A stretch of 64,000 nucleotides of DNA from Candidatus Latescibacterota bacterium (GTDB taxonomy: Bacteria; Krumholzibacteriota; Krumholzibacteriia; WVZY01). The position numbers and the translations under genes are program-made. Every line of letters begins with the position of its first letter. Position 1 is the stretch's first letter. The notes under the pieces were generated by a model. That model made no database searches. It was not told where the DNA came from and worked only from the letters and a program-made list of their open reading frames with translations. Shown here piece after piece: positions 6,499 through 26,730 of the stretch. Where the stretch lies: NCBI GenBank assembly GCA_963791045.1, contig CAWBQK010000013.1, positions 52,694 to 116,693 on the forward strand, read 5' to 3'.

Positions 6499-6637
6499 AT
6501 GAATTCCCTTTCTGATTCAATCGAGAAAATATCAATCGGCATAGATCTCATACCAATTGTGTATAGCAATAATAAAGTATGTTTTGGTAACGAGTTCAAG
6601 CGGCAAGGAGACTTTTGGCGCGTTGCGGGTGAGTTCT

Positions 6638-9600: not shown

Positions 9601-10669
9601 CGAGCAGCACATCGGCGCCCAGATGCACGCTGTCGTACCGGTTGCCGAACGTTGCACTGGCAGCGTCGAGCGTGACACCATAGCTTCCCGCCGCCGCGCC
9701 GACAGGCGCGACCACAACAACGCGGTAGTCCGCCGTCTCACCGGGCGAGAGAGTCCCGGTTGTGAACGGGAACGCGGAGAGGCCGCTACCCGTATCGAGC
9801 CACACGTCCCAACCAGCGGGAGGCGTAACCGAAAGTTCATAAGTGTCCGCGTCAAGACCTTCGTTCTCCACGCGGAGATCATAGAAAATCGTGTCGCCGG
9901 GCAAGGCGCTCCAGATCGAGAATCCGCCCCCACCGGATCCGATCGCGCCGAATTCGTCATTACCGTTTCCATCCACGGCGAGGTCGACAAATTTCCGAAA
10001 GATAACCGACACATCGTCGACATACGACCACGTTTCCCAGAGATGATCGTTGGTATTTGCCTGCTGGAAGTAAACGCGAATCGTCTGCCCCGCATAGGCG
10101 GACAAGTCGAACCCGGCGGGCGCGACGCCATCGTCGCTAAACCATCCGCTGTCCTTGAAAATGTAACTTGGGTCTGTGAACATCAACGACAACACCGACT
10201 CCAGCGTGTTGTTCGCCGTGTCCCTGATCTCGGCGTCGAACGGATCGTACGGGTCCGTGTCATAACCCTGCTGCCGGACCTGGTAGGACAACGTGGCGAT
10301 GGAGATGTCCGCCGGAATCGTGACGTCCTGATACATAAAGCCGACGGCGCTCTTACGTTCGCGCGAGTACTTGAATCCCAGCCGCGCCGAGTAGCTGCCC
10401 GTGTAAGGCATGTCGGGAACAACGAGATGATCGGCAAGCGCAGGATTGAAATTGGTCCCGCGGAATGCGCCGTGAACCCAGTACGGCCCGAAGTCGCCGG
10501 TCTCGAATGACCCGTTCTGGATTAGCTCTCCCGCGAACGCGACATGGGGAATCAGAACCAGCCCGATGATCACGAGACACACGGCGGCGCACACGATTCC
10601 GGAGTTTCCACTCCGGCGCTCCACGCCGTTTACTGCCGTTGAAATATTCATCCTAGAACTTGTAATCAT
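6638..10669 (-). CDS. giant secreted surface protein with N-terminal CBM4_9-like domain, six tandem Ig-like repeats, SdrD-B-like domain and C-terminal DUF11 (OmcB-like) module
   Basis: 1343-aa ORF with signal peptide (IVCAAVCLVIIGLVLIPHVAFA). NGSFETGDFGPYW is the CBM4/9 hallmark. Six ~130-aa repeats share (V/I)DGxGxGxFG..G.GGxS...ELxNxG...W..P.GW. DENHDGIYDPGEAGIGGVTV is SdrD_B-like. The C-terminus TYTISYTNTGADSVQSV is DUF11. Start could be 10651. Confidence 0.85.
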   Translation of the reverse strand: MITSSRMNISTAVNGVERRSGNSGIVCAAVCLVIIGLVLIPHVAFAGELIQNGSFETGDFGPYWVHGAFRGTNFNPALADHLVVPDMPYTGSYSARLGFKYSRERKSAVGFMYQDVTIPADISIATLSYQVRQQGYDTDPYDPFDAEIRDTANNTLESVLSLMFTDPSYIFKDSGWFSDDGVAPAGFDLSAYAGQTIRVYFQQANTNDHLWETWSYVDDVSVIFRKFVDLAVDGNGNDEFGAIGSGGGGFSIWSALPGDTIFYDLRVENEGLDADTYELSVTPPAGWDVWLDTGSGLSAFPFTTGTLSPGETADYRVVVVAPVGAAAGSYGVTLDAASATFGNRYDSVHLGADVLLATYGADMAVEGNGFGVVGDDGAGGFSIQTDVWNNTVSYAIELRNTGMAPATFDVTWAADPGAVSEIVYAGATYSSPFTTQIVAAGATAVMTLEVTVPSPETGGDYSTIVAAAVIQDPLKNDSIEATLRLDAPRVDMIVGSNGDGIYDDTQSGLGGSSSSVSQKSTEVVFPVTIQNEAGVSDAFTLTWDRPTGNWKAVLVVGGVDYSFPYTTATIPAHGELSVELKIIVPGNAKNGTWSSFLHAESGVDSRVSESVTAAVSITEEGQVDMIIDGSGEGVFGPVGTGLGGNSLRTVAPGDSVTFIVELLHPSGADAADISWNTPPGWRVTFDNRTSPVAGYPEGVYELKAVVPLDATGGLVDIIVDAEKSDRRYYMDSVLGRLQVYPVTVVDAVIDGNGDGVFGLLGSGGGGLSLQTQAAPSVLNFTLELQNEGGDPDQYTVTWNDIPFWNAALNSSSTPYTTGLIPAGATGLYTFEVVLPSGAFPGDYSYVIDVVADSDPTVVESVEARITVVGPPRIDLIIDGSGSGIFGELGTGDGGQSIRPANAGGSYSALLEARNVGSFADSFYVYWELPAGWPAGSVVLSDGFASYSGPFWTTMIGAGGSLNFTVDVQVPVTAVAGVFPSIINAYSSLPPNSPESVRLVTQTGAVVTGIVFDDENHDGIYDPGEAGIGGVTVVENNSGLTLVTGGDGRFTFVNGGGAPITLFEQNLPGFVSISPDTVGPATVDAGDTLTVNFADVLGIRLSTGAVLNGVAGSYVDFPHRLDAGTSGAVVLSAAADSGVVTMFLLDENGNGVFDGADRALQPGDLDMDPTAGRDHVNLFLRVFVPTSSTPGTTHQVLIDAVQSIGGTPLVATAQAADAVLVVDGTVGLLVLQKQVDLDEAQPGDVLTYTISYTNTGADSVQSVLILDAVSAFVDPMSDAFGAGLDVEWHKDAAPVEYLTLDPADGDECEYSVSERLLRVTFSRNSAYVLAPGETGELVYRVIVK
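7819..9994 (-). repeat. six tandem ~390-nt coding repeats (Ig-like modules) inside the giant surface-protein gene
   Basis: Six consecutive protein-level repeats beginning (I/V)DG(N/S)GxG(V/I)FG and ending ..W..P.GW. Confidence 0.55.
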
Positions 10670-13600
10670 TGAACATCCAGTCAGAGAGAATCAGTTGAAC
10701 CCTTATGCCAAATCCTTTTTGCCACGCGTCGTTTTCTGAAAGATCCCGATCTTCGAATCCGCCGACACTGTACCCGGCGCCGATCCTCACGCGATCGAAG
10801 AAGAGATAACCGAGCTCGGCGCCCGACCCGATCTGCCTCGTCCCAACATCGACCTGCCCGAGGAACCGCACCCACAAATCCACGTCCCAGTTACGGGCAA
10901 ACCGGAACACGTACTGGGACAACAAGAGATAGTTGCGGCTCGTCTCCGAAATTCCCGTGCTGTAATTCTCGACACGTTTCGCGGCGAGTTTGAAACGCAA
11001 TTCGTGCGCGTTGTGCGGTATCACGTTGATATCCGTCGACGCGATCAGCTTCCACACGATCGCCTCGGGATCCACCGGCGAGTAGCGGTCGTACTCGGTT
11101 CTCAAGAGGAAGAGAGACCGGAACGGGGTAACCAGCGGGCGGTACACACCGGCGAGCCGGCCGTCCATGCGAAGCGACGTCTCCCGGTCATCGAATGTTG
11201 AAATCGATATCGCATCTTTAAAAATCACCGACATACCCTTGTCAAATTCTTTTCCCGCATTGAGCTTCAACACATGACGGTTGGACGCCCGCTGCCAGCG
11301 GTATTCGTATTGGGCCTCGACGAGCGACTTGCCCCGCTTGATCCGGTTGAGCCCCGTCTTAACAGCGACATATTCGTCGTCGACCTGGCTTGAGAACGAC
11401 CGGTACCCCTCGATATCAAACATCGCGGCGAGATCCCAGGTGATCGGGAACGTTTGTTTCATTCCCATGATTGTTCCCATTCGCTTGTCGTTCGCCGTCC
11501 GGTTCATCGCGTACTTCGTATACAGCTTCGAATTCTGACCCGTCTGCGCCTCGATGCCGGTGAGCAGCTGGTGGGTCGCAGGCCGGTTGTGCGCCGACAA
11601 GTACTCGTGCGTCGCCACGACCCGGTATCTCTGGAGGAAGCGGTACGACAAAGCCGAAGTCAAACGGTCGGGATACTCATCGACAATATCCGCGCCCTGG
11701 TTCCGCTCCCAATGCGTCCGAAGTTCCGCGCTGCGGCCGGCGCGGACGCCGGCGTCAAGCATGGTGAGAAAACTGCTGCTCTCGATACTTTCCTTGTCCT
11801 GCGTCGCCGCCCTGAGGCCCGCGCCAAACATCAGGGTCTTCCCTTCGTACTTTCCAAGCACGTCCACATTGCCAAGACGGTCGCCGCTATTGTCATTCCG
11901 GTGTTTGAAACCGTGCGAGTCGATGGACAGGTCGTTGCTTATTCTCAAGTGCGAGTCAAACCCCGCCTTTTCGCTGTAAAGCTCGCGCGAAGCTCCGGCA
12001 AACGACGGGTTGAGGAAATTGCCGTCGACCTTGCGGAGATAAACCGAGTGCTCACCCATGAGTTTTTTCGTGCCCGCCATCACGCGAAACGCGTTGCCTT
12101 CGCCGGCGATGTCGTCCTCGCTTCGAGCAAACTCGCCCCCCAGATCGAGCCAGCCTATCGAGTATCCGCCATCGAAGCCGTAGAGCGAATAATCCGAAAG
12201 ATGCCCGTCCTTGGCGATCGCGGTCACGCCGAGCTTGAAACGGCCGCTCTGTGCCAGTGCGCCTCGGATCCCGTAGAGATAGTCTCCCTCTTCCGACGAT
12301 TCCGCCTCGTAGATGGCGACGATCCTTACCGGGTTCAATTCGCGCGTGAATGCGGGAATCGGCTCTTTGAAAAGAATCGCGCCGTTGAAATAGTTGACGG
12401 TGAAGTCCCGATGTTCAGTGAGGGGCCTGATCTCTAGAATTCTCTCGGACTGGTAGCGGTCGCGCACCTGGAGCATGAGGTTTACAGAGTTTTCCACGAC
12501 GGGCGATTTCGACAGGAAGTAGAACCCGCTGGTGCCGTCACCCTGGATTTCATCCTGGACGGTAAAGAAATCCGTTTTGGTCACGAACGCTTCGACACCG
12601 GCGTTCCCAGAAACGATGGCGCCGTTGAGGCCGGTGGCTGATTTCTTGTAGGTGAGAAATTCTCCCTCGGTAAACGGCGACCGGAAGTCTCCGTATCGCA
12701 AGAAGGACTGCCCCTTCTCGAGGGCGATGTAATTGCCGCCCTGCGCGGGCGCCTCGTAGTGAAGCTCGGACGCGTCGCCGTACGCCGTGTACTGACGCTC
12801 GGGGTTGAAAGTCTGAAGGAGCGGATCGTCGTAGCGCTTATCGGTGTCGATACGCGCGGTCAAATTGATTCCCGCGTACGACGTCCCCTGGATAAAGAAA
12901 CGCGACTCGCCTTTGAATCGAACACCCTCGTAGTAATCTTCGAGACCCAACGGATCGCCGCTCCCCGATGAGCTGAAAGCGCCGAGACGCCCCTCGATGA
13001 TTCCCGACATAAACATCGACCGGTGTGCCGGAACAAAAGCGACAACACATGTCGCCCTGTAACCGTGCGACTCGACGACAATATTCCGGCGCCCCGTTGT
13101 CAGGCTCGGCCGGATGTGCACGAGGAACTGTCCGTTCTCGCTCGAAATCTGCAGGCCGCGCTGATCCGGATCTTCGTCGGAGTTAGTAACAAGCGAATCG
13201 CCTTCGATCACGGTGGCTATGAGACCGTTTATCGTCGGGAGACCGAGTTCGTCGCGGAGTTCGACCAGAATCGTCTCGCGTGACTGCCCGTCCGCGGGAA
13301 GGATGACACGATCGGGCACTATCGCGATATCCACGGGTTTGCCCGCGAGCGCGACCGACACGCTGTCGACAATCGTTTCGGCTCCATTGACGGGGGTCGC
13401 TTCGAGTCGAGGCGTGTTCCAACCGTTCTTGATGCGCACGGCGTAATAAGTGATCTCTTCGAATCGTTCGTCGAGATGGATTTCTTTTTTACCGATCCGG
13501 TCCGCGGGAACGAGTTCGTCACCGCTGAACAATTCGTACTTGCTGCCCAGCGGGACCCGGGCCGTGACTTCGATCTGGTCGCGCTTAATCACAACCGATC

Positions 13601-13976
13601 GGTCGGGCGGGTCAAGGAGTCCGAGCGCCTTTACCTTGTCCTGGCCGCCGCGTTCGTCCGGCGGACTCTGTTCAGCATCGCCGGCAACTCCGTTCGCTCC
13701 GCCAACGGAATAACTCGCCGTGCTGTCCCCGGGGGCAAAACCGACACCGGCGGCGCGCAAACGCATGGCGAGATCTTTGTCCTCTTCCCACGAAACCAGC
13801 GTGTAATACTCCGTCTCTTTGCCGCCCCATCCGTGGGCGAATGGCTCGAGGACGACCGTGGAATCGAGCCACGATGACGAAGCGTCGGGAACGTCCGGCC
13901 ACGCGGGCTCGGTAATCGACCGGTTTGCTTCACGCCACGGGACTTTGCGGCTCGTGCTTGTCTCCACGCTTCCCAA
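10653..13976 (-). CDS. large predicted outer-membrane beta-barrel protein (family unassigned), C-terminal ...NDYKF
   Basis: 1107-aa ORF with long alternating amphipathic beta-strands and a C-terminal aromatic residue (F), typical of OMPs. No signal peptide. The first start is TTG, only 12 codons after an in-frame TGA that ends the upstream OmpA-domain ORF. Start and independence are uncertain. Confidence 0.7.
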   Translation of the reverse strand: MGSVETSTSRKVPWREANRSITEPAWPDVPDASSSWLDSTVVLEPFAHGWGGKETEYYTLVSWEEDKDLAMRLRAAGVGFAPGDSTASYSVGGANGVAGDAEQSPPDERGGQDKVKALGLLDPPDRSVVIKRDQIEVTARVPLGSKYELFSGDELVPADRIGKKEIHLDERFEEITYYAVRIKNGWNTPRLEATPVNGAETIVDSVSVALAGKPVDIAIVPDRVILPADGQSRETILVELRDELGLPTINGLIATVIEGDSLVTNSDEDPDQRGLQISSENGQFLVHIRPSLTTGRRNIVVESHGYRATCVVAFVPAHRSMFMSGIIEGRLGAFSSSGSGDPLGLEDYYEGVRFKGESRFFIQGTSYAGINLTARIDTDKRYDDPLLQTFNPERQYTAYGDASELHYEAPAQGGNYIALEKGQSFLRYGDFRSPFTEGEFLTYKKSATGLNGAIVSGNAGVEAFVTKTDFFTVQDEIQGDGTSGFYFLSKSPVVENSVNLMLQVRDRYQSERILEIRPLTEHRDFTVNYFNGAILFKEPIPAFTRELNPVRIVAIYEAESSEEGDYLYGIRGALAQSGRFKLGVTAIAKDGHLSDYSLYGFDGGYSIGWLDLGGEFARSEDDIAGEGNAFRVMAGTKKLMGEHSVYLRKVDGNFLNPSFAGASRELYSEKAGFDSHLRISNDLSIDSHGFKHRNDNSGDRLGNVDVLGKYEGKTLMFGAGLRAATQDKESIESSSFLTMLDAGVRAGRSAELRTHWERNQGADIVDEYPDRLTSALSYRFLQRYRVVATHEYLSAHNRPATHQLLTGIEAQTGQNSKLYTKYAMNRTANDKRMGTIMGMKQTFPITWDLAAMFDIEGYRSFSSQVDDEYVAVKTGLNRIKRGKSLVEAQYEYRWQRASNRHVLKLNAGKEFDKGMSVIFKDAISISTFDDRETSLRMDGRLAGVYRPLVTPFRSLFLLRTEYDRYSPVDPEAIVWKLIASTDINVIPHNAHELRFKLAAKRVENYSTGISETSRNYLLLSQYVFRFARNWDVDLWVRFLGQVDVGTRQIGSGAELGYLFFDRVRIGAGYSVGGFEDRDLSENDAWQKGFGIRVQLILSDWMFNDYKF

Positions 13977-14012
13977 ATCCGCCCGCGTACTCGAACCACC
14001 ATACGAACTCGA

Positions 14013-16589
14013 TCATCCGCCCCCGTGTCCCCGACCGTCGAGTTGAATCCGACAACGGAACGAATCTCGCGCACCCGATGCGTGTCGGACGCCGCCGCGG
14101 TAAACGACACCTTGCACTCGATTCCGCGCGATCGGGCAAATCCACCGACGACATATCGGCCATCGACTTCGGCGATCCTCCCCGCCGCACGTGACGCGCG
14201 TCTTTGCGTCATCGAACACATCCGGGATTTCGAGCGCGAGATCAATCTCGACCGGGATTATCGCGTCGGAGGAGATTCCCCAAATCACAAACACGTGGAA
14301 CGAATCGGCGACGGTTGTCACGTTACTCATGTCGGCTTCGACACGGTCGATTTCCGCATGGTCCTCGACACCGGTTCCCGGCGGAACAAAACTGACCTCG
14401 ACACGACGGTTCTCTGCGCGGCCTTCGCGCGTCGTGTTCGTCGCCACCGGCGTAGTGTCGCCGTGGCCTCGTGCGACGATCCGCTCTTGGGGAATCCCTT
14501 TGGCGGACAGATACCGCTTAACCGCGCCGGCACGCGCCTCGGAGAGTTCCTGGTTCGAAGCAAATTCCGCGTTGTGGATCGGAATGCTGTCGGTGTGACC
14601 TTCCAGATAGACGATCCAACCAGGATTCTTCTCGAGAAATTCGACAATCGGGTTGAGATAGTGCAGCGTCCCGGTTTTCAGATACGATTTGCCGATTTCG
14701 AACAGCGAACTTGGAATTGACGGCATCCGGTAAAGGGCCTGTTGTTGTTTCCGGATGCTCACCATTTCCTGGCAGGATATCTGACGCGACACCCGCGGCC
14801 TTTCGCGGGCCCGTTCGGGCATCGGGAATGACACCACCGCGTGGCCGCTGGGGATCATGTGGACCAACCGTTCGGTGCCGAACACTGCGTTGGTTTTTGT
14901 GGATATGGCCTCGATGTCGACGATGTCGGGCGCGAGCGTGCTTTCATCGATCCGGATTACACGAAAACCGGAAAACACCCACGGGACCGAGAAGCGCCCC
15001 GTCGAGTCGGTCAACGCGTACTCCCCGCTCTCGAGAAATACGCCGACCCTCGGGAGTCCCCTCTCTCCGTGATCACGCTTGCCGTTTTTGTTTGCGTCGA
15101 CAAACACATCGCCAAGGAGGAAACCCTCGTCACCAAACATATCGTTTGCAATCTTGAGCGCGTTGACCACGGGCCCCGCGTAAAGATTGCGCGCGAGCGC
15201 CGTGCCGACAGCGTTTCCGGTGATCTTCGTCCAGCCGTTCTTGACGCGACTGTTTGCGACAAACTTGATCACCGCCTGCCGGCGTTCCCCGGGAGCGAGT
15301 GATCCAACCTGCCATGCGAGGGTCTTTCCGTCGAGCTCAAAATCCGGACTCGAGAGAAACTCGAGTGTCGGCTGAACCGTTTCGTCCACAACGACATTGT
15401 CGGCGCGGACGCTGTCGCTCCGGTTGGCAACCGCGACAACCAGGGTGACGATGTCACCGAAGGCCGCCGTGTTTTCTTTGAAAGTTTGTTCGAGACTGAG
15501 AACCGCCGACGGGTTGAACGGTTCGGCAAGAACAATCCGGTCGATTGTTTCGTTCGTCCGCGTCGTGTCGAGGAGCGAACGCGCTCGCAGACGAATCGAT
15601 AACGAGTCCTGCCCGACGTGATAGAACGACTCATCTTCGGTGGTGACGTGAACTTGAAGCGTCCGTCTTTCACCGCTTTCCAGCTGACCGAGAAGCACCG
15701 CGCCCGAACTGGCAGGAACCGTTCGAAGCCCGTTGCCGGCGCTGTCCCGCACGGTTACCTGAACCCCGGGCGGCCAACCGGTCGAATCGGCGGGCTCGAT
15801 CCGAATTATGTCCGGATCGCGGCCATCGTTAAGAATTTCGTTTTCAAAAACAAGTGTCTGCGTCGACACTCCAACGCTGCGGCGCGTGACGTCATCGGGA
15901 CTACCCTCTCCGCCCGGCAACGCCTTCGCGTTCTCGAGCGGTCCGACGTGAAGCGGTTGGACTGGATCCGCCTGTGTGAGAATGTGAACAACGCTCGATG
16001 CCCGGCGCTCGAGCGTGTCGACACCCGTGGCCGCCGAAATATCGACATAACTATCCCCACCACCCTGCCCCGAAGTGAGAACGTACATCGTTCCCAGGTC
16101 CGTCGACTCTCCGGGCCCGAGGTTGAGGAAGGATCGGTCTTCCTCTCCGGGATCGAAAGCGGAATTCCCGTTCGAATCGTGATAGAAAACGACATCACTG
16201 ATTCCAATCGTCGACGCGGACAAGATCGCGTGATCGACCGAGATCGAATCGGCGACGTTCCCCAGGTTTCGCACCACGAAACCGCACTGAACGGTATCCG
16301 CCTCGAAACCGAACAGCGAATACGCGGGACTCGCTACCGTGCCGGCCGGCGTAAGCGAAATCTGGAAGAAAGGACCCACTGGTGTGGTCGCCGGATTGGA
16401 CCGAACGGCGTGTCGGAAGCCGTTCTGAGTGTACTCGGCGCTGGACTGGGAAATGATTTCATAACCAAGAGGCGGGACGGCGGCCTGCACGTTTTGCCAA
16501 ACAAAAAACACCCCTACGACGACCCAACACCATAACAGGCGCTTTAACAATGGGTTATAGGGATGAATTCTCACTTGATGATCTCTCAA
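14013..16589 (-). CDS. secreted protein with SdrD-B-like domain and OmpA-like peptidoglycan-binding domain
   Basis: Signal peptide (LLWCWVVVGVFFVWQNVQAA). DANKNGKRDHGERGLPRVGVFLESGEYALTDSTGRFSV is SdrD_B. aa 620-735 (WIVYLEGHTDS...NQELSEARAGAVKRYL...NRRVEVSF) is OmpA_C-like. The last ~60 aa are an R/G-rich, junk-like tail. Confidence 0.8.
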   Translation of the reverse strand: MRDHQVRIHPYNPLLKRLLWCWVVVGVFFVWQNVQAAVPPLGYEIISQSSAEYTQNGFRHAVRSNPATTPVGPFFQISLTPAGTVASPAYSLFGFEADTVQCGFVVRNLGNVADSISVDHAILSASTIGISDVVFYHDSNGNSAFDPGEEDRSFLNLGPGESTDLGTMYVLTSGQGGGDSYVDISAATGVDTLERRASSVVHILTQADPVQPLHVGPLENAKALPGGEGSPDDVTRRSVGVSTQTLVFENEILNDGRDPDIIRIEPADSTGWPPGVQVTVRDSAGNGLRTVPASSGAVLLGQLESGERRTLQVHVTTEDESFYHVGQDSLSIRLRARSLLDTTRTNETIDRIVLAEPFNPSAVLSLEQTFKENTAAFGDIVTLVVAVANRSDSVRADNVVVDETVQPTLEFLSSPDFELDGKTLAWQVGSLAPGERRQAVIKFVANSRVKNGWTKITGNAVGTALARNLYAGPVVNALKIANDMFGDEGFLLGDVFVDANKNGKRDHGERGLPRVGVFLESGEYALTDSTGRFSVPWVFSGFRVIRIDESTLAPDIVDIEAISTKTNAVFGTERLVHMIPSGHAVVSFPMPERARERPRVSRQISCQEMVSIRKQQQALYRMPSIPSSLFEIGKSYLKTGTLHYLNPIVEFLEKNPGWIVYLEGHTDSIPIHNAEFASNQELSEARAGAVKRYLSAKGIPQERIVARGHGDTTPVATNTTREGRAENRRVEVSFVPPGTGVEDHAEIDRVEADMSNVTTVADSFHVFVIWGISSDAIIPVEIDLALEIPDVFDDAKTRVTCGGEDRRSRWPICRRWICPIARNRVQGVVYRGGVRHASGARDSFRCRIQLDGRGHGGG

Positions 16590-16683
16590 GGATACAATCC
16601 GCCATATACGGGGCTGGCGGATGAATGGCTGAAGCCACTCATCCGCCTGCCTTGCTCAAATATTGTCCGTCTTGTCGGACGAA

Positions 16684-19386
16684 CTACTCGGCAATGATCC
16701 GAACTATAAAACTCACACCGGTTGCTGACGCTCCACCGGGTTCAAGAACTCCGGCGAGAACAAAACGCACATGCGTAACGTTCGCGTCGAAGTTGACCGG
16801 TGCACCGCCACCACCGCTGACCGGCGTGTACGTCCACGACGTACCGCCGTCATTCGAATACTGCGGCGTTACGCCGGTAATCGAAGCCGGTGGTGTGCCA
16901 GGGTCAACGGAACCGACACGGAACTGCGTGAACGCCGGAACCGCGTCTATGACCGCAAGGGTCTGAAGCGAATCCGTTCCGAGGTTCTGATAGTCCGTGG
17001 TGTATGTAAGCTCCGAGCCCGGTGTTTGCGGGCCCGCGGGAGCCACTGCCTTGGTGATCTGGAGATCACCGGCTGTTATCAACGTGATGTCGATCGCGTC
17101 GTCGCTCACGAGCGTGACGTTGCCTGTAGCGGTCAACGTGCCCGTCTCAACCGTTCCAACGGTCGCCGTACCGGGAACCATGACCTGAGCGATAACCGTA
17201 ACGCTGGCGCCGGGGTTGAGCGTTACATCGGCCAGAGGGTTGTTGAGCGTATCGTAGAACAGATACGTCCATCCCTGCGACGAGACGTACGACAGCGCGA
17301 ACGTATCGGCCACGTTACCGGTATTGGTTACCGTGTGCGTGTAGCGGATCGTCCCGCCGGGTGTCGTGCTCCCGTTCTGATCGGGAGAGAAATCAACCGC
17401 CGCAAAGTTGTTTATCGTAACTGTGTTGGCGATAGTGTCCAGAATGGTTCCGTTGGCAACCGAGGTCGCTGTAAACGACACGGGGTTGATACCCGGAGCC
17501 GCACCCGCAGGAACATCCACACGGGCGACGATATTTACCTCGGCTCCACCCGCGATCGGTCCCACCGATACCAGTGTCGTGGTTTCGCCGGGATCGAGCA
17601 CACCGTTGCCGTTGGGATCGTCGTAGAACGTGACGTTCCATCCCGCGGGCACCGCATAGGTGAGCGTGTAGGAATCGCTTCCCCCACCCGTATTAACAAC
17701 ATCGAGCGGGAAATCAACCGACGTCGCCGGGTCGGCGGGCAGATCCAACGGATTGTTGTCCGTGCCCGGACCGGCAAGGTAGTTACCGATGTCCACGCTG
17801 ACCGGCGTCACGTTGAGGACGCGATCAGTCGTAAGGTTGAACTCGGTTGGATCGATCGTCGACTGGGCACGGATAACCGCGTCAAACGGTCCGCCGGCAG
17901 CCTGGCTGCCCGGGATTACCAGTCGAACGATAATGTCGACACTGTCGCCCGGCGCAACGGGGCCCACATCGGGGAGTCCGTCAAAACCGGTATCGGCGAG
18001 CGGAGTCACGCCATCTGACTGGAGCAAAAGAACGCCCCAGGTGGCGGGAAGTGTCGACGCCGGATCGGTGAGAATATTGATCTGATCGGCGGCATTGCCG
18101 TCGTTTCTTACGGTATTGACGAAGTCCACGGTCGTGCCCGCATCGGCGTTGGCGAGAGTCTGGAGATCGTCGTTGTACAGGGGAGGCGTACCGGCACCGG
18201 CGTCACCGGCAGGACCGATTACGATGTCCGCGAGACCGCCGATGGTCACCAGCGCGTTATTCGAAACGATCGTTGTCGGATCCGGTGTCACGGCGGTGTT
18301 GTCGATATAGGTCACGGCCGCGGTGTTACCCAGTGAACCGGCGCCCATGCCGATCGGAACGGTCGCCTGATACACAAAGTTGTAACCCTGACCCGGAATG
18401 ATCGCGCCGTTGGTCACATAACCGACGGCAAGGTCGCCCGGCCCTGCTACGAGGCCCCAGTTCCATGTTTCGGGATCTCCAGCGGTCGACTCGCCGGCGG
18501 GAAGATAAAGAACCGTTCCACCCGCTGGCGTACCAAACGGCACACCGGAAATTGCGAGAGGATTTCCCGTCGAAGGATCGGTCGGAATAATATCCCAGAG
18601 CAACACACCGGTAAGACCAACGGAACCAACGGTTACGCCGTTCGCGTTGTTGTTACCCGTGTTTGAACCGGAAAGCGTGTAGGTTACCTGGTTGCCTTCG
18701 AATACGATCGCGGGCGCGGCGGCGAGATTGGCCGTCATTACCGCGTCGTTCACAACGTCGGTCCTGTGATAATTGCGTGTGTCGATCTGTGCCGCGTCTC
18801 CAACAGAGACACCGGTCACACCGACGTAAGCAAGTTCACCCGAAACGGCGGCCGCGGGCACTGTGTAGGCGACGATAACACTGATTGTCTGCCCGGCGGT
18901 GAGAATCCCCGTATTGCCCGAAATGCCCCCGGCGCTCAGAACGGGTTCACCAAGATCCACCATGCCGTTCGAGTTGAGATCGTGATAAATCGTGACATCG
19001 ACGTTGTTGAGCAACATTGTTGAATTCGCAACGTCAACATTGGGAGACAACGTAAAGTCATCGTCGTCATTACCCGTGTTGGTCAGATCGTATCTATAAT
19101 ATACGGTCATGCCGGGCAGTGCATTCTGAGCCATCGCCGGAGTCAGGGGAGGCGTTTCACCCGAATCATCGGGGAGAATCGACACACCAAACACCGGAAG
19201 AACGATGGTGATGACTTCATTTGATGTCGCGGAATAATTGTTCCCACCCATGTCCTGGTAGGTCGCAGATGACCGGTTCCGGATCTGCGTACCGGCAGGC
19301 GTTGCCTGCGCAAAGACAGTTGTTGCCGTGACCGCGACGATCAACAGCAACATCACGGGAAGGGTGATGTAGACTCGTCTACTCAT
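16684..19386 (-). CDS. secreted 900-aa surface protein with multiple Ig-like/DUF11 repeats and C-terminal DUF11 module
   Basis: Signal peptide (MLLLIVAVTATTVFAQA). Repeated YxDxNGNG.DPGE and TNTGN motifs. The C-terminus LTYTTDYQNLGTDSLQTLAVIDAVPAFTQF is DUF11. No T9SS CTD. Confidence 0.85.
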   Translation of the reverse strand: MSRRVYITLPVMLLLIVAVTATTVFAQATPAGTQIRNRSSATYQDMGGNNYSATSNEVITIVLPVFGVSILPDDSGETPPLTPAMAQNALPGMTVYYRYDLTNTGNDDDDFTLSPNVDVANSTMLLNNVDVTIYHDLNSNGMVDLGEPVLSAGGISGNTGILTAGQTISVIVAYTVPAAAVSGELAYVGVTGVSVGDAAQIDTRNYHRTDVVNDAVMTANLAAAPAIVFEGNQVTYTLSGSNTGNNNANGVTVGSVGLTGVLLWDIIPTDPSTGNPLAISGVPFGTPAGGTVLYLPAGESTAGDPETWNWGLVAGPGDLAVGYVTNGAIIPGQGYNFVYQATVPIGMGAGSLGNTAAVTYIDNTAVTPDPTTIVSNNALVTIGGLADIVIGPAGDAGAGTPPLYNDDLQTLANADAGTTVDFVNTVRNDGNAADQINILTDPASTLPATWGVLLLQSDGVTPLADTGFDGLPDVGPVAPGDSVDIIVRLVIPGSQAAGGPFDAVIRAQSTIDPTEFNLTTDRVLNVTPVSVDIGNYLAGPGTDNNPLDLPADPATSVDFPLDVVNTGGGSDSYTLTYAVPAGWNVTFYDDPNGNGVLDPGETTTLVSVGPIAGGAEVNIVARVDVPAGAAPGINPVSFTATSVANGTILDTIANTVTINNFAAVDFSPDQNGSTTPGGTIRYTHTVTNTGNVADTFALSYVSSQGWTYLFYDTLNNPLADVTLNPGASVTVIAQVMVPGTATVGTVETGTLTATGNVTLVSDDAIDITLITAGDLQITKAVAPAGPQTPGSELTYTTDYQNLGTDSLQTLAVIDAVPAFTQFRVGSVDPGTPPASITGVTPQYSNDGGTSWTYTPVSGGGGAPVNFDANVTHVRFVLAGVLEPGGASATGVSFIVRIIAE

Positions 19387-19396
19387 AGTCCTTACC

Positions 19397-19888
19397 TCAC
19401 TTGATTACCGTTCTGTACGTTACAGTGATGCCTTGTTTTGGCTGGACGGGCTCCGAGAGAGCCCAACGGAGATGCGTCACCATGTCCGGTGTTGCCTCCA
19501 CCAATTCTTCCTCGCCGTTCTCGTTCGTCTGTTTGACGAGAATCGGCCAGGCCTGGTACGTTTTTCCTCCATCGATGCTGTACTCCACGTCGCCCGTTTT
19601 GAGCTCGGTGGCTGACGGATGGACGAATTCGGTACCCAACGGGATTCCGTCCGTTATGAAAATATTCTGTATGGGCTGGTCGCCGGTGTTGGTGTAGGTC
19701 AACCGATATTCAATTGTATCGTTTGGCCTCGCGTTATCAGCGGGAAGAAAATCTTCCACTCCCTGGTCGGTAACCACCACCCGAAAAGCCTCGAGACTGC
19801 CCGCCAGATCCCCCCCGGCGGCAAATGCCATCGATGCGGTCAATCCGAGAACAAGCAGAAACACCGCAAAGAAGCGCTTCTCTATCAT
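19397..19888 (-). CDS. small (164 aa) secreted DUF11-domain protein, first gene of the surface operon
   Basis: ORF 19397..20101 trimmed to ATG 19888, which is preceded by the perfect RBS AAGGAGG. Signal peptide (FFAVFLLVLGLTASMAFAAG). TIEYRLTYTNTGDQPIQNIFITDGIPLGTEFV is DUF11. It lies 10 nt upstream of the next gene. Confidence 0.8.
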   Translation of the reverse strand: MIEKRFFAVFLLVLGLTASMAFAAGGDLAGSLEAFRVVVTDQGVEDFLPADNARPNDTIEYRLTYTNTGDQPIQNIFITDGIPLGTEFVHPSATELKTGDVEYSIDGGKTYQAWPILVKQTNENGEEELVEATPDMVTHLRWALSEPVQPKQGITVTYRTVIK

Positions 19889-20147
19889 AAAGAGCCTCCT
19901 TAAAAACTCCGGTCCGTGGATAATTTGAAACGTCGCGGCGAGGATCGATGACGTACCGAGGGGTAAGATTTCTTCCCCGCCTGTCCGGTCAGGGAGACAG
20001 ATAGCAAGGAGTGAACCACCTATGAGAAGTGTCAAGGAACGATGACACCTCATGAGAAATCCCGCGTCGCTGTGGGGCGACCGACGGCGGTTTCTCCCCA
20101 ATCACGGAACGACGGGGTAATTCAAGACGCAACACGAACGCGCAACC

Positions 20148-20164: not shown

Positions 20165-20235
20165 TTTCTGGCGAAGACACCCGGAACAGGCCGAAAAGTG
20201 TTGAATATTCTCCACCCAATGGCAATTATTTGGTC

Positions 20236-21300
20236 ATGGACTTACCATCGCGCGCATCAAGGTACAGGCTGGCAATAGTCCTGGTGGTGTCACTGGCGAC
20301 CGTGGCCTTCCATTACGGCCTCATCGTCAAGCCATCGGCGGGAGATGACGGATTTTTTCATGCGATACACGGGCGTCTCTGTTATATCCCGATCATCCTC
20401 GGCGCGATCTGGTTTGGGGTTCGCGGCGGCCTCGGAATCGCTCTTTTTATAACGGCGCTCACAATCCCATACGCCCGGTACGGCCCGCACGCCCAACACG
20501 GCGCGGCGATCGGCGAATACACCGAGATGATTTTCTATGTCGCGATCGGCCTCACGGCGGGGTTTCTTATCGAACTTCAAAGACGAGAACGTAAAAGGCG
20601 GGAGGAGATGGCCGACGAACTCGCCCGCCAGGAACACCTCTCATCGCTCGGGCAAATGGCCGCCGGTCTCGCCCATGAAATCAAAAACCCGCTCGGTTCG
20701 ATAAAAGGATCCGCCGAAGTCATTGGCGACGATTATCCCGAAGGCACGCGCAAACATGAAATCGTCGAAGTGCTTTCGAAGGAAACCGACAGGTTGAATC
20801 GCGTCGTGGAAGATTTCCTCAAATTCGCGCGGCCGCGGCCGATAAACAAAGAGATGCGCGGGTTGAACTTTCTGCTCGAGGAAGTCGTGTTGCAGATTGG
20901 AGTGGATGCAAACGCCCGCAACATCACAATCAAAAAAGACATCGACGTCGCACTTCCTGTGGCGCGGGTCGATCCCGAGAAAATGCGCCAGGTGTTTTTG
21001 AATATGCTGCTCAACGCCGTGAACGCGATGCCCGACGGGGGCACTATCCGTGTCGAAACCAAAGTGGACATCCGTGACGGCAAGAACGTCTTTCGCATCA
21101 CATTCATGGACGAGGGCGTCGGAATACCGCCCGAGGATGTCAAAAAAATATTCGATCCGTTTTTCACGCGGACGGACGGCGGGACGGGTCTTGGACTCTC
21201 GATTTCACACTCCATCGTCCAGGAACACGGCGGCCATATCGAGGTCGAACCCAACCACCCGCGGGGGACGTCGATTTCCGTTATCCTGCCCTTTAAATAA
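20236..21300 (+). CDS. sensor histidine kinase with membrane-embedded N-terminus (intramembrane-sensing type), HisKA + HATPase_c
   Basis: Four or five TM helices and no periplasmic domain. H-box LGQMAAGLAHEIKNPLGSIKG and N/G-box MLLNAVNAMPDGG...GTGLGLSISHSIV. ORF-track start 20230 is TTG. ATG at 20236. Confidence 0.9.
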   Translation: MDLPSRASRYRLAIVLVVSLATVAFHYGLIVKPSAGDDGFFHAIHGRLCYIPIILGAIWFGVRGGLGIALFITALTIPYARYGPHAQHGAAIGEYTEMIFYVAIGLTAGFLIELQRRERKRREEMADELARQEHLSSLGQMAAGLAHEIKNPLGSIKGSAEVIGDDYPEGTRKHEIVEVLSKETDRLNRVVEDFLKFARPRPINKEMRGLNFLLEEVVLQIGVDANARNITIKKDIDVALPVARVDPEKMRQVFLNMLLNAVNAMPDGGTIRVETKVDIRDGKNVFRITFMDEGVGIPPEDVKKIFDPFFTRTDGGTGLGLSISHSIVQEHGGHIEVEPNHPRGTSISVILPFK

Positions 21301-21311
21301 GAAAGCTGAGA

Positions 21312-22661
21312 ATGCCCAGGCCAACCATACTCATAGTCGATGATGACGCGAGCATCCGCAAAGTCCTCGGATTTATCCTCGAGGAGGCGGGCTATGCGAT
21401 TCGCACGGAATCGTCGGGCGCGGCGGCAATCGCGGCCATTGAGAGCAAACGGCCCGACCTCGTAATGACCGATATCAAGATGCCCGGGATGGACGGGATT
21501 ACGCTTCTCGGCGAAATTAAGAAAATCGACGACGGCATCCCCGTCATCGTGCTCACCGCGTTTGGCTCGGTGGAGACGGCCGTCGACGCCATGAAACTCG
21601 GGGCAATCGATTATCTCACGAAACCAATCAGCCGGGATGAGCTTACACTCACCGTCGAGAAAACGCTCCGGATACGACAACTCGAAAAAGAGAACGTGTC
21701 GTTAAAAGAATCTCTCGCCGACAAGTTCGATGTGGCGAACATCATCGGACACTCCCCCGCCATGCAAAGCGTATTTGAAATCGTCCGGAAGGTGGCGGCC
21801 ACGGACGCGTCGGTCCTGATAACCGGCGAAAGTGGAACCGGGAAGGAACTCATTGCAAGGGCAATTCACTTCAACTCCACCCGCAAGGATGCGCGGCTTG
21901 TCACGGTAAACTGCGCGGCGATTCCCGAGGACCTTCTTGAAAGTGAGCTTTTTGGGCATGTAAAGGGCGCGTTCACCGGAGCCATCAGGAAGAAGGACGG
22001 CAGGTTTCACCTGGCGCACAACGGGACCATTTTTCTCGACGAGATCGGATCGCTTCCCCGACCCCTCCAGGCAAAACTCCTTCGAGCGCTTCAGGAACAA
22101 GAAATCCAAAGGGTCGGCGAAGAAGAACCCACAACGGTCGACGTTCGTGTGATTTCAGCCACCAACCGTCCCCTGCCCGAGCTGATTCGCGACGGGGAAT
22201 TTCGCGACGATCTTTTTTACCGATTGAATGTCGTACCGGTCACCGTGCCACCGCTGCGTCAGCGCCGATCGGACATACCGCTTCTCGTCGATCACTTTAA
22301 GGGGGACGGAGGAAAGGTAACGTTCACCGCCTCGGCGCTCGCGGCGCTCGAGGAGTACGAATGGCCGGGAAACGTGCGCGAGCTGGAAAATTTTTGTGAA
22401 CGCATCGTGTTGATGTCAGGCTCGGGCACGATCGACGCCGCACCAGTACGGGAGCAGATCGAATTGATGAAAGCGGAACAAGCCCATATCGGATCACCGC
22501 AACAGGCAACGCTTCCCGAGGTGGAACGCCGCGCCGTGGTCGAAGCGCTTATCGACTGCAACTGGAACCAGTCGAAAGCCGCCCGCCGCCTCGGCATCCC
22601 ACGGCACGTTCTTCTCTATCGCATGAAGAAGTTCAACATCCACCGCGACCATTCCGACTAA
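21312..22661 (+). CDS. sigma-54-dependent response regulator, NtrC/AtoC family (REC-AAA+-Fis HTH)
   Basis: REC domain (LIVDDD...D at MTDIKMPGMDG). Sigma-54 activation AAA+ domain (GESGTGKELIARAIH, GAFTGA, ESELFGH). C-terminal HTH (NQSKAARRLGIPRHVLLYRMKK). Confidence 0.95.
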   Translation: MPRPTILIVDDDASIRKVLGFILEEAGYAIRTESSGAAAIAAIESKRPDLVMTDIKMPGMDGITLLGEIKKIDDGIPVIVLTAFGSVETAVDAMKLGAIDYLTKPISRDELTLTVEKTLRIRQLEKENVSLKESLADKFDVANIIGHSPAMQSVFEIVRKVAATDASVLITGESGTGKELIARAIHFNSTRKDARLVTVNCAAIPEDLLESELFGHVKGAFTGAIRKKDGRFHLAHNGTIFLDEIGSLPRPLQAKLLRALQEQEIQRVGEEEPTTVDVRVISATNRPLPELIRDGEFRDDLFYRLNVVPVTVPPLRQRRSDIPLLVDHFKGDGGKVTFTASALAALEEYEWPGNVRELENFCERIVLMSGSGTIDAAPVREQIELMKAEQAHIGSPQQATLPEVERRAVVEALIDCNWNQSKAARRLGIPRHVLLYRMKKFNIHRDHSD

Positions 22662-22732: not shown

Positions 22733-23812
22733 ATGAACAAAATCGAAATCCTCAACTGGAAAACCAAAGATCTGTCGACGGATGGACCCTTTGATTTCCG
22801 GCTCGACCGCGGACCGGCCGGGCTGACGGAAACCGAAAATGCGGGCTCTACCGGCGAGCGTCTTCCCATCGGGGTTCCGGCGAGCCCGCCGGCGCTTCTT
22901 GAGACAGACGCGGGTCACATTGTCATCCACGGACACAGGCAGATTGACGCGGCACTTTCCGAAGGCGCCGCGTCGATACCTTCAATCGTTTATCCGGCAG
23001 ACACGCCCAGACAAACTGTCGTCACCCTGGCGCTCGAACAGTGCGCCATCCAGGGCGCCGGCCACCCGAGAGAAGAGAATAAACACAGCGGCGGCGCTCT
23101 TTCGGGCATCGAAAAGATCCTGGCGATTTACAAAACGAGTTTGTACGCAGGCGGCGGCCTTGCGGCGGCAGGCGAGCCGCTAAAATTGGACACGCCGGTG
23201 TCCCCCCCCGACTGGATCGTTCCATTGTATGCAAATCTGCTCGGACGGCGGGTCTCCAAGCCATACCTCGCAAGGACCTGCACGGCTCTTGCATTCCCGG
23301 CGTCCGAACTTCTCGCACTCGCGCGTTTCAATTTTACGATAGACCAGATCGCATCGATTCTCGTTCTCTCGCCGAAAGAGCGTGCCGCGGTCCTCGCCCT
23401 TCTCCGTGCCACCGCGTTTACGACGGCCGACCTCAGACAACTCGTCCGGCTCCTGATCCTGGCGCGCGGACGCGCAAAATTCGATCTCGAGCCGACGGCG
23501 GCGGCTGCGGCGAAGAACCAAAAGGGCGGTTCGGCGATCACCCGGGCAATTGAGATGGAGATTTATCCGGCGTTAACGGCCAGGAAACGGCGAATAGAGA
23601 CCAGTCTCCGGGAGATGAGGCTGCCGAATCGGTTACGGATCAAGCCACCGGAAAACCTAGAAGGGGATTCGTTTTCGTGTTACTTTAGGTTTTCTCGGCT
23701 CGAGGAACTTGCCGGTTATGTGGAATTACTCGGGCGGGCGGTGCAGGACGGCAGTGCGGGGAAGCTCCTCGATCTGTTGAATGACGGTGATGCGGACACG
23801 GAGGCACAATGA
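22733..23812 (+). CDS. hypothetical protein with weak ParB/sulfiredoxin-like N-domain
   Basis: ORF 22685..23812. Start chosen at MNKIEIL. HIVIHGHRQIDAALSEGAASIPSIVY resembles the ParB N-domain core. The rest is Ala/Leu-rich helical. Confidence 0.5.
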   Translation: MNKIEILNWKTKDLSTDGPFDFRLDRGPAGLTETENAGSTGERLPIGVPASPPALLETDAGHIVIHGHRQIDAALSEGAASIPSIVYPADTPRQTVVTLALEQCAIQGAGHPREENKHSGGALSGIEKILAIYKTSLYAGGGLAAAGEPLKLDTPVSPPDWIVPLYANLLGRRVSKPYLARTCTALAFPASELLALARFNFTIDQIASILVLSPKERAAVLALLRATAFTTADLRQLVRLLILARGRAKFDLEPTAAAAAKNQKGGSAITRAIEMEIYPALTARKRRIETSLREMRLPNRLRIKPPENLEGDSFSCYFRFSRLEELAGYVELLGRAVQDGSAGKLLDLLNDGDADTEAQ

Positions 23813-26730
23813 GGCGTTTGTTCTTTCTACTGATTCTGGCGGCGGTCACTACCCCCTCACTGGCGGGAGCGCAGGAGTATTTCCAGCAAACCGTCGCCTA
23901 CAAAATAAACGTTCGGCTCGACCCAAAAGAACACATGCTCACCGGGACCGAGGAGATCGTCTATACAAACAACTCTCCGGATACGCTCAAGGAGTTTTAC
24001 CTCCATTTGTACCCGAACGCGTTCAAGTCAAAAGACACGGCGTTGATGACCGATGTACGCAAACGCTTCAACAGAACGATCTCCGACCTCCCCAAGAAAT
24101 ACAGAAGCTACCTGAACATCTATGACGTCCTGATCGACACAACACAAGTCTCTCCAATAATTGACGATACCATCGCCAAGTTCTTCCTGCCCCGTCCTCT
24201 GGCGCCGGGGGCAACCATGAAGATCTCGCTCCGATTCGAAGAAAAGGTTCGAAGGCACGCCGGTCGAGCCGGGTACCGCAAGGAGCACTATGACATCGCC
24301 CAGTGGTACCCAAAAGTCGTCGTCTATGATGAGAAGCGATTCCATCCGGACAAGTTCCGGTTGGGAGAATTCTACGGCGAGTTCGCGGACTATGATGTCT
24401 CGATCGATATTCCGATAAAGTACGTCATCGCCGCCACGGGAGTGCTCGAAGAGGGTGACGCAGGTTGGACGTACAACCCCGTGAAAGGCGACAGACGAAA
24501 GGGAGAGCGCGGGCAGGACAAAAAGTTCAAAACGGTCCGTTTCCGCGCCGAAAACGTCCACGATTTCGCGTGGAGCGCGAATCCGCGATTCAGCGTCCAG
24601 ACACAAACACTCAATGATGTCGAAATAATGAGCTTTTTCGACCGGGGCAACAAGTCGTGGAGAGACTCCACGCTGGCGCACGGAGTTCGCGCCGTCGAGT
24701 GGCTCTCAGAGAGGGTCGGGCTGTACCCGTATCCGCAGCTTTCCCTGGTCCAGGGACTGTTGCGCGGGGGGATGGAGTACCCGATGCTCGTCATGGACGG
24801 TCACGTGAGCGAATCGCTCGTCGTTCACGAAGTCGGCCACAACTGGTTTTACGGCGCTCTGGCGAATAACGAAAGAAACTCGGCATGGCTCGACGAAGGA
24901 CTGACAACATTCCAGACCGATTGGTACCTGACCGAACGTTACGGCAAATGGGGCAATAAGAAGAAGTGGAACCTGTACGAAAAAATCACGCCTCAATACA
25001 CACTCGTCGAAAAACAGAGGCGACGGGTTCTTCCCCTCATGCGCAGAGGATATTCCGAGCGCCTATCCAAGCCGGCGGAGAATTACAAACACGATTACGC
25101 GGCGATGGTTTACGGCAAAGGCTCGTTGATGTTCAACGCGCTGCGTTATGTCGTGGGCGAAGAGGATTTCGAAGAAATACTCAAAACTTACTATGAACGC
25201 TGGAAATTCAAACACGTCAACGAGGAGAGATTCCAGGCGGTGTGCGAAGAAGTCAGCGGCATGGACCTCAATCTGTTCTTCGAGCAGTGGATCCACACGA
25301 TCAAGGTTTGTGATTACAATCTCTCCAAAATGAAAACCACGGTCAATGAAAGCGGCGACGGCTACGTAACGGAGATAACCATTTTCAGACTCGGCGAAGT
25401 TGTACTGCCGCTCAATCTCAAGATTACGTTCCGCGATGGAACCACACAAACAACGCGAATCGAAGGCCGGCTGCGGACTATCAAAAAAACTTACTCGTTT
25501 CCGTCGAAGCCAAAGAAAGCGGCGCTCAACCCGGAAAACGAGATCCTCGACATTAACATGGCGGACAACTTCCTGCCGCGGCGCTACTCGCTTCAGATCG
25601 ACTGGCCAAACAACCGATACTACCCGGAGGATTCGTACCAAATCAGGCATCACCCGTATGTTTGGTACAACGATGTGGACGGCCCAAGAGTCGGTCTTCA
25701 TTTCAAGGGAAGCAACGCCGAGTGGAGCCGCCGCTTCAAATTGGGATTGTACTACGGCGTGGACAGCGGCCGGCTTGATGTCGCCGCCAAGTGGATACGT
25801 CCCTCGTCCATTTTCGGCACGCACACATTCGGCATTTTGTCCGGTTACAAACTTGAAGGCCGCCAGGACATAAACGTTGAACTCGCGTATCGCCGTCGAA
25901 AAGAACTGTCGCGTCCGCCGACTCACAATTTCGCGATCGGCATGAACTACCACGAACTCCGGCGCTCGCAGTACATCTCCAACCCGGAACAGTACCAGGA
26001 AAACTCGGACGTCGCGCCGTACATAAATTACCAGGTCGACCCGCAGTTCGATCTCTTCTCGACCGACCTCGACTTCGGCCTGCGGTTCGGACGAGAGTGG
26101 TTCGGCGGCCGATCTAAGTACACCCGGTTCAACAGTTCGGTTGGCTTGAAATCACGCCCCGAGCTCTCTCGCTTCGACACGCGTTTTCGGATGTTTTTTG
26201 GTGTCGTGGATGCGGAATCCCCGTATCAGCAGAAGTTCTATCTTGCCGGCGGCGGCCCTCTTGCCGAGGAAAAGGTATTCTTCCTCCGAAGCCCCGGCGC
26301 CATCCCCAAGGATCTCAATTACCACGAGCCCGGACACGGCAACCTCAGAGGTTATTTCACGGGGAATTTTGGCGTGAATCGTCTGTTCTCGCTCAATCTT
26401 GAAATGGGCGGCAAGGTGCCCCTGATCTCGAGCAGCAAAAAGAAATTTCTCGGCGAGATTAAGGTATATGCTTTTGGAGATGCCGGGTGGGTTATGGATT
26501 CAACAAATCCCATCGGGACGAGCGAACGGATTGGAGATCTCGTCAACGATGGGATCTTTGATGACACACTTGCCGATGCGGGGATCGGTTTTACTCTCGC
26601 GCGGGATCTTCCCTTCTGGAAAATGCTGCTGAGACTCGACATCCCCTTCTGGGTGGGGCAGCCAAAGATAAACGGCGAAACCCAACAGACCCAACACCGC
26701 TACGTTTTCAGTCTCAAAACATCATTCTAA
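23809..26730 (+). CDS. secreted M1-family zinc metallopeptidase domain fused to a C-terminal Omp85-family beta-barrel
   Basis: Signal peptide (MRRLFFLLILAAVTTPSLAGA). Gluzincin motif HEVGHNWFYG...NSAWLDEG (HExxH-x18-E). The C-terminal ~420 aa have amphipathic strands and an Omp85-like KFYLAGGG...LRGY motif, and end ...YVFSLKTSF. Confidence 0.8.
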   Translation: MRRLFFLLILAAVTTPSLAGAQEYFQQTVAYKINVRLDPKEHMLTGTEEIVYTNNSPDTLKEFYLHLYPNAFKSKDTALMTDVRKRFNRTISDLPKKYRSYLNIYDVLIDTTQVSPIIDDTIAKFFLPRPLAPGATMKISLRFEEKVRRHAGRAGYRKEHYDIAQWYPKVVVYDEKRFHPDKFRLGEFYGEFADYDVSIDIPIKYVIAATGVLEEGDAGWTYNPVKGDRRKGERGQDKKFKTVRFRAENVHDFAWSANPRFSVQTQTLNDVEIMSFFDRGNKSWRDSTLAHGVRAVEWLSERVGLYPYPQLSLVQGLLRGGMEYPMLVMDGHVSESLVVHEVGHNWFYGALANNERNSAWLDEGLTTFQTDWYLTERYGKWGNKKKWNLYEKITPQYTLVEKQRRRVLPLMRRGYSERLSKPAENYKHDYAAMVYGKGSLMFNALRYVVGEEDFEEILKTYYERWKFKHVNEERFQAVCEEVSGMDLNLFFEQWIHTIKVCDYNLSKMKTTVNESGDGYVTEITIFRLGEVVLPLNLKITFRDGTTQTTRIEGRLRTIKKTYSFPSKPKKAALNPENEILDINMADNFLPRRYSLQIDWPNNRYYPEDSYQIRHHPYVWYNDVDGPRVGLHFKGSNAEWSRRFKLGLYYGVDSGRLDVAAKWIRPSSIFGTHTFGILSGYKLEGRQDINVELAYRRRKELSRPPTHNFAIGMNYHELRRSQYISNPEQYQENSDVAPYINYQVDPQFDLFSTDLDFGLRFGREWFGGRSKYTRFNSSVGLKSRPELSRFDTRFRMFFGVVDAESPYQQKFYLAGGGPLAEEKVFFLRSPGAIPKDLNYHEPGHGNLRGYFTGNFGVNRLFSLNLEMGGKVPLISSSKKKFLGEIKVYAFGDAGWVMDSTNPIGTSERIGDLVNDGIFDDTLADAGIGFTLARDLPFWKMLLRLDIPFWVGQPKINGETQQTQHRYVFSLKTSF

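Follow-up and report, generated by a model that had tools for sequence, protein, structure and literature searches.

In the type IX secretion system (T9SS) and in Slam/type XI secretion (T11SS), cargo is marked for its cognate barrel by a C-terminal domain that the cargo proteins share. Slam cargo genes adjoin the barrel gene and their products carry a common C-terminal recognition domain. Very large outer-membrane barrels fused to a peptidoglycan-binding module are known from Deinococcus SlpA and the OmpM-type proteins. The domain family DUF11 has been renamed CLIPPER by Pfam and is a CnaA-like stalk domain of fibrillar adhesins (PMC12617251). The CLIPPER crystal structure 9IFR has an isopeptide bond between K715 and N806, with D748 as the catalytic residue (PMC12617251). 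Intramolecular Lys–Asn bonds of this kind occur in many but not all members of the family. Here we describe a locus of a Candidatus Latescibacterota bacterium in which three secreted proteins, the products of genes A, B and E, end in a common DUF11-type domain, termed the T-module. They are encoded beside a giant gene, C/D, whose product joins a peptidoglycan-binding OmpA-like domain to an outer-membrane β-barrel. The window analysed, to which all positions refer, is a stretch of 64,000 nucleotides (nt) from contig CAWBQK010000013.1 (positions 52,694 to 116,693; assembly GCA_963791045.1). The T-module is a dedicated, specialised subfamily of DUF11/CLIPPER type, which we tentatively read as a docking or targeting handle for the giant OmpA-barrel protein, with A as a minimal cap, plug or adaptor.

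A, B and E each end in a module of ~120–135 amino acids (aa) whose last strand runs directly into the stop codon. The module signature is EYRLTYTNTGDQP in A, TYTTDYQNLGTDS in B and TYTISYTNTGADS in E, and the proteins end directly after the module with ...YRTVIK, ...VRIIAE and ...YRVIVK. Gene A (19397–19888, minus strand; 163 aa plus stop) carries it as the single domain after the signal peptide (aa 28–163, nt 19400–19807). In gene B (16684–19386, minus strand; 900 aa) it covers aa 766–900 (nt 16687–17091), and in gene E (6638–10669, minus strand; 1343 aa) aa 1222–1343 (nt 6641–7006). The module has the CnaA-like Ig β-sandwich fold of DUF11/CLIPPER. PF01345 scores 25.1, 25.4 and 38.6 bits for A, B and E (cut-off 24.6) and TIGR01451 scores 47.5, 35.9 and 39.1 bits (cut-off 24). 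An earlier reading of this DNA from sequence only had noted three proteins of very different size ending in a shared DUF11 module without extension, and both its coordinates and its sizes were correct. Its description of A as a bare DUF11 domain agrees with the AlphaFold2 model, in which a signal peptide is followed by one DUF11 domain.

The three modules are far closer to each other than to the canonical DUF11 domain within C. BLASTP E-values are 1.7e-9 for A–B, 1.8e-10 for A–E and 2.6e-10 for B–E, with the sequences alignable over their whole length, against 0.02 or worse for any of them with the DUF11 domain of C. A profile built from 101 terminal modules matches three ORFs only in the window, A, B and E, at 103–136 bits and at the extreme C-terminus. 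The other Ig-like domains of B, C and E reach 8.5 bits at most, and the Pfam-positive DUF11 domain of C 2.1 bits. An exhaustive search of 1.84 billion representatives with a profile of the three modules found that the first half (profile positions ~5–75) is generic DUF11, common to thousands of giant repeat proteins. The second half defines the subtype by an Asp-box (FSxDGGkTW), a strand with THxRW and, at the end, an amphipathic strand whose last residue is K, E or R; a search with this half alone matched 18 short fragments. The module lies 0–3 residues before the stop codon in essentially all full-length matches, and 15 residues or fewer in all 101 collected. Known CLIPPER stalks share the above-threshold HMM matches with the T-module but consist of tandem internal repeats. 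The T-module instead occurs once, at the extreme C-terminus, has an extended second half with Asp-box and THxRW, exists also as a free-standing form of 140 aa without the strand-1 Lys, and is tightly linked to a giant barrel gene.

This link extends well beyond the window. The barrel family counts at least 460 relatives across GTDB species genomes, drawn from Krumholzibacteriota/Latescibacterota, Desulfobacterota, Nitrospirota, Gammaproteobacteria, Lentisphaerota and Eisenbacteria. Among the Desulfobacterota carriers are Desulfatibacillum alkenivorans DSM 16219 and Geomobilimonas luticola. Upstream DNA reaches at least 3.5 kb in 55 barrel loci, and 53 of these have a small module-only gene there, on the same strand, in all of the groups named except Eisenbacteria. 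In the reverse test, metagenomes were scanned with a degenerate DNA pattern encoding FSIDGGKT[YF], which gave 66 loci with small module proteins; the giant gene is found downstream in 10 of the 12 that have at least 4 kb of downstream sequence. The sequence-only reading would have been undone by terminal domains no closer to each other than random DUF11 domains, or by DUF11-terminated genes scattered without operon association, and neither was seen. Its proposal of a dedicated shared module instead of independent adhesin domains is borne out by the subfamily profile, the terminal position and the tie to the barrel gene.

Gene order varies across phyla. In Krumholzibacteriota/Latescibacterota loci with enough flanking sequence the order of small (~163 aa), ~900 aa, giant and ~1300 aa genes is invariant, with an E ortholog downstream of the giant gene in every case. 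In distant phyla the giant gene comes after genes for a ~165 aa module-only protein and a ~380 aa protein. Large module-ended proteins are sometimes encoded on either side as well, and often the small gene follows another gene that carries the module. The suggestion that the small gene always comes first is thus correct for the clade of the window but often does not hold in other phyla.

The giant gene is represented in the window by two minus-strand ORFs, C (14013–16589; 858 aa) and D (10653–13976; 1107 aa), which are one gene (10653–16589) interrupted by two frameshifts. Most homologs of D are single proteins, ~1900 aa long, with additional matches to PF01345 and PF00691. In a tblastn alignment with a homolog of 1904 aa the frame is lost near 14164–14175, at a G-run, and regained somewhere in 13862–14051, an interval that contains another G-run. 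The frameshifts put ~40–100 codons out of frame and create the stop at 14013. As D by itself lacks a signal peptide, we attribute the split to an assembly error or a disrupted copy. The restored gene encodes a signal peptide, an N-domain, a canonical DUF11 domain (nt 15252–15500) and an SdrD-B-like region. These are followed by an OmpA-like peptidoglycan-binding domain (nt 14406–14705; PF00691 at aa 629–728 of C, 68.3 bits, cut-off 27.2), two Ig-like domains and a β-barrel of ~34–36 strands (nt 10686–13013) ending in ...NDYKF. The model of D (pLDDT 79.7) places the Ig-like domains at residues 119–315 and the barrel, with ~34–36 long strands, at 322–1097. A small β domain lies within the barrel at 416–540. 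No close solved relative of such a barrel was found. By architecture the protein compares with SlpA and the OmpM-type proteins, which differ in having SLH domains and coiled coils and no known T-module partners.

The N-domain connects the giant protein to B. In B it follows the signal peptide (aa ~27–175, nt 18862–19308) and is joined to the T-module by an Ig-like stalk. It is 32% identical over 150 aa to the N-terminus of C (nt ~16060–16490, minus strand), has the consensus TPAGTVISNTATATYTDGGNTYTATSNEVTTTVLPVYGVSITP, also written TPAGTxIxNxAxAxY...SNxVxTxV, and is the most conserved stretch of B. It is not in Pfam and recurs in the ~380 aa proteins of distant clusters. Gene E begins, after its signal peptide, with a head domain (aa 47–230, 9980–10530) that starts with GELIQNGSFETGDF, followed by ~8 NPCBM_assoc/CARDB-like Ig domains, an SdrD-B-like region and the T-module. 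The head has no match in Pfam, NCBIfam or PDB sequences; it may be a jelly-roll binding domain. Among complete ORFs in all loci, 122 small proteins have a T-module and no N-domain, 26 of 37 proteins of 600–1100 aa have both, 41 giants have an N-domain and no T-module, and 17 E-like proteins of 1100–1700 aa have a T-module and no N-domain. These counts suggest parts that plug together, with N as anchor, N plus T as linker and T-only proteins as ends.

This arrangement would fit an assembly of the cell envelope or surface with one giant outer-membrane protein at its centre. The OmpA-like domain of C/D would bind peptidoglycan, and the T-module would commit the Sec-exported A, B and E to the barrel protein, by binding in or on the barrel or by binding the N-domain common to B and C/D. 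The combinatorial domain logic is kept across phyla: the small protein as T only, the middle protein (B or its ~380 aa version) as N, stalk and T, the giant as N through to OmpA and barrel, and optional large proteins such as E as head, stalk and T. E would then serve as a distal binding protein and B as a stalk or linker. A would be a T-only cap, plug or adaptor occupying the same site and not a polymerising pilin.

This logic resembles that of two known secretion systems. As in T9SS, an Ig-like sandwich is found at the very C-terminus of proteins of very different size, a ~36-strand barrel like that of SprA could pass folded domains, and the lineage of the window belongs to the FCB group. 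However, the T9SS C-terminal domain models (TIGR04183/Por_Secre_tail and TIGR04131) have no match in A, B or E in Pfam/NCBIfam searches at E-values up to 0.1, the cluster also occurs in Proteobacteria and Nitrospirota, and its barrel is fused to an OmpA-like domain. Slam differs in that its cargo domains are small β-barrels, its cargo is mostly lipoproteins and its barrel is a 14-strand DUF560 protein with TPR. No PF04575 match and no homology to Slam/T11SS were found in Pfam/NCBIfam scans, and the module is a sandwich in the model of A, not a barrel. The same scans found no sorting signal other than the signal peptide in the partner proteins. The T9SS C-terminal domain, Slam, chaperone-usher and sortase-assembled pili were each rejected as an account of the system, as their family models are unmatched, LPXTG signals and sortases are absent and the fold of A is complete. 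No description of the cluster was found in the literature on DUF11/TIGR01451 proteins or on Krumholzibacteria/Latescibacteria adhesins. The domain family is known. Apparently undescribed are the terminal subtype and its occurrence as a stand-alone protein, the giant barrel fusion and the linkage of these across phyla.

The modules of B and E retain a Lys and an Asp that match two of the three isopeptide residues of 9IFR. B contains exactly one lysine in 900 residues, K779 (codon 17050–17052), and only 16 arginines. In 18 orthologs the count is 1–4 lysines per mature protein, and the one 121 residues from the C-terminus is invariant. D814 and D867 are likewise invariant; D867 sits at +88 from K779, and the Asn of 9IFR at +91. 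K1232 and D1266 are invariant in E, in which no clear acceptor residue stands out. Both module types therefore have an invariant strand-1 Lys followed 34–35 residues on by an invariant Asp, a spacing like that of K715 and D748 in 9IFR. Judging from this conservation, an internal Lys–Asp/Asn isopeptide is likely in the B module and probable in the E module. The A module would have none, as strand 1 of A has no Lys and the corresponding position in the small (S-type) proteins is Arg or variable. Because the Lys and Asp are kept in B and E types and the Lys is not kept in the small proteins, a uniform cross-linking role is unlikely. Most ORFs in the window contain 1.5–6.6% lysine. Lower values occur in gene E (1.0%) and in a few overlapping ORFs that are probably non-coding. 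Neither A nor B contains a cysteine, and E has three, two of them within the signal peptide. The label OmcB-like was therefore rejected beyond the shared domain, since A, B and E are not cysteine-rich. Chlamydial OmcB has DUF11 domains, but it is cysteine-rich, contains several internal copies and has no associated giant barrel.

The five consecutive minus-strand ORFs A to E fill window positions 6638–19888 and form an operon of four genes once C and D are joined. A and B are separated by 10 nt and B and C by 94 nt, while D and E overlap by 17 nt. Sec-type signal peptides are present at the start of A, B, C and E. Gene A begins at an ATG at 19888 with AGGAGG 7 nt upstream. A terminator-like hairpin (6533–6559, minus strand; consensus scan only) ~80 nt past the stop codon of E likely marks the operon end. 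A sigma-54-type promoter, TGGTTCACTCCTTGCT (20003–20018, minus strand), lies ~115 nt upstream of gene A with correctly spaced GG-N10-GC elements; the chance of such a match in this upstream stretch alone is ~0.05. The motif TGG(A/T)(A/T)C-N5-(C/T)TTGC, with up to 2 mismatches allowed, is found ~100–350 nt (mostly 100–230 nt) upstream of the small gene in 19 of 24 clade loci, namely the related Krumholzibacteriota/Latescibacterota loci L001–L035 in which a small gene was called. No such site was found upstream of the small gene in distant phyla. Divergent from the operon are a histidine kinase (20230–21300, plus strand) and an NtrC-type sigma-54 activator (21312–22661, plus strand), both assigned by Pfam, and this pair also adjoins the operon in L001, L002 and L003. 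From promoter motif and neighbours, the operon is probably sigma-54-dependent. A peptidase M1 family protein of 973 aa (23809–26730, plus strand) follows the two-component genes and is also the neighbour in L001 and L002, so local synteny reaches beyond the operon.

A two-component system and a sigma-54 promoter beside a small structural gene recall PilS/PilR-pilA, which counts towards a different explanation, that of a pilus. Here A would be the major fibre subunit, subunits would be joined through the T-module by strand exchange or isopeptide bonds, B and E would be minor or tip proteins and the barrel an usher-like pore. The gene layout resembles chaperone-usher operons in pairing a small subunit and larger tip-like proteins with an outer-membrane barrel, and in the clade of the window the small, highly conserved gene comes first. 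The fold of A resembles Gram-positive pilin domains and its strand 1 is nearly invariant among relatives. Chaperone-free donor-strand polymers of ~165 aa proteins also exist (AbpX, bioRxiv 10.64898/2026.01.04.697558), although AbpX matches the module profile only at E 0.5. The structural model argues against such joining. A is predicted as one complete 10-strand β-sandwich (residues 28–163, pLDDT >93) with ~4 mature residues before strand 1, no free N-terminal extension and no missing strand, although a monomer model leaves room for a strand-1 swap or self-complementation. Pfam and NCBIfam scans of the operon found no PapD-like chaperone, PF00577 usher or sortase, A, B and E have no C-terminal LPXTG-type signal, and the barrel is ~50% larger than, and not, an usher. 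The isopeptide Lys is missing from S-type proteins, the short A–B gap holds no attenuator and thus gives no sign of A in excess, and in many phyla the cluster does not start with the small gene. We therefore consider a pilus unlikely, and with it the earlier casting of A as a major subunit joined by donor strands.

Another explanation is that the module binds a polymer, such as lipopolysaccharide, exopolysaccharide or peptidoglycan, and so retains A, B and E on the cell, with the barrel acting only as an export pore or as a tether between outer membrane and peptidoglycan. The Asp-box (SxDGGxTW/Y in A- and B-type modules) and the T-H-x-R-W cluster are invariant in small proteins of all phyla and resemble a ligand site. 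Charge may point the same way, as small proteins are Lys-rich whereas in every phylum the middle and large proteins that end in the module contain little Lys and Arg, B and E being strongly acidic. The Asp-box is best known from sialidase propellers, but Asp-boxes are structural hairpins that occur in many folds. PDB sequence searches with the B module and with the module profile gave no significant relative; the weak profile matches were Asp-box matches to sialidases, weak matches to FlgE, and AbpX. Pfam and NCBIfam gave no glycan-binding family match for the module proteins. E-type modules have neither the Asp-box nor the THxRW consensus, so there is no single ligand site common to A, B and E. 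Polymer binding as the common function is accordingly improbable.

Mere paralogy, in which the terminal domains are the last stalk domains of adhesins duplicated in an old operon and their position is accidental, draws on DUF11/CLIPPER being a common stalk domain (PMC12617251), on the generic first half and on a module conserved no better than the rest of B or E, but we give it little credence, as a stand-alone 140 aa version is kept beside the giant gene in at least 5 phyla, full-length module matches are never internal and never repeated, and the three subtypes (A/S, B and E) are conserved as separate orthologous groups.

Several observations weigh against the T-module as a handle for the barrel protein. 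The analysis establishes the module subfamily, its strictly terminal position, its association with the giant gene, the unity of C and D and the fold class of the barrel. The handle function is read from gene architecture, and we infer the physical docking of the T-module, the topology, the exposure at the surface and the parts played by A, B and E. The lack of extra conservation that paralogy would explain is unlike many secretion signals. The giant gene is broken in the window, and this copy may be non-functional. The OmpA-like domain would place the N-terminal half of the giant protein in the periplasm, so that any contact between N-domain and T-module would be periplasmic and not at the surface. 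The small β domain at aa 416–540 in the model of D could itself be the barrel plug. In 2 of the 12 module-seeded loci, L110 and L147, there is no giant gene within 6–7 kb downstream; their small module-only genes are possibly free-standing copies.

A bolder extension of the handle reading is that the giant OmpA-barrel protein and its T-module partners form an unrecognised outer-membrane export or display pathway in many Gram-negative phyla. The T-module would serve as the signal for cargo or anchoring, with the barrel gated or capped by the small T-only protein and B shaped by selection to have no free lysine. This is doubtful as it stands. If the handle itself is real, the system would offer diderm bacteria a compact, self-contained route to display large folded Ig-repeat proteins, needing only one barrel protein, one small protein and cargo with a common end-domain. 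Its carriers are hundreds of mostly uncultured species, with at least two in culture. B is a natural secreted protein of 900 residues with one lysine, probably locked by an isopeptide, and is of interest for protein engineering. For the family, the handle would mean that CLIPPER/DUF11, so far regarded as stalk filler, gains a terminal, signal-like role.

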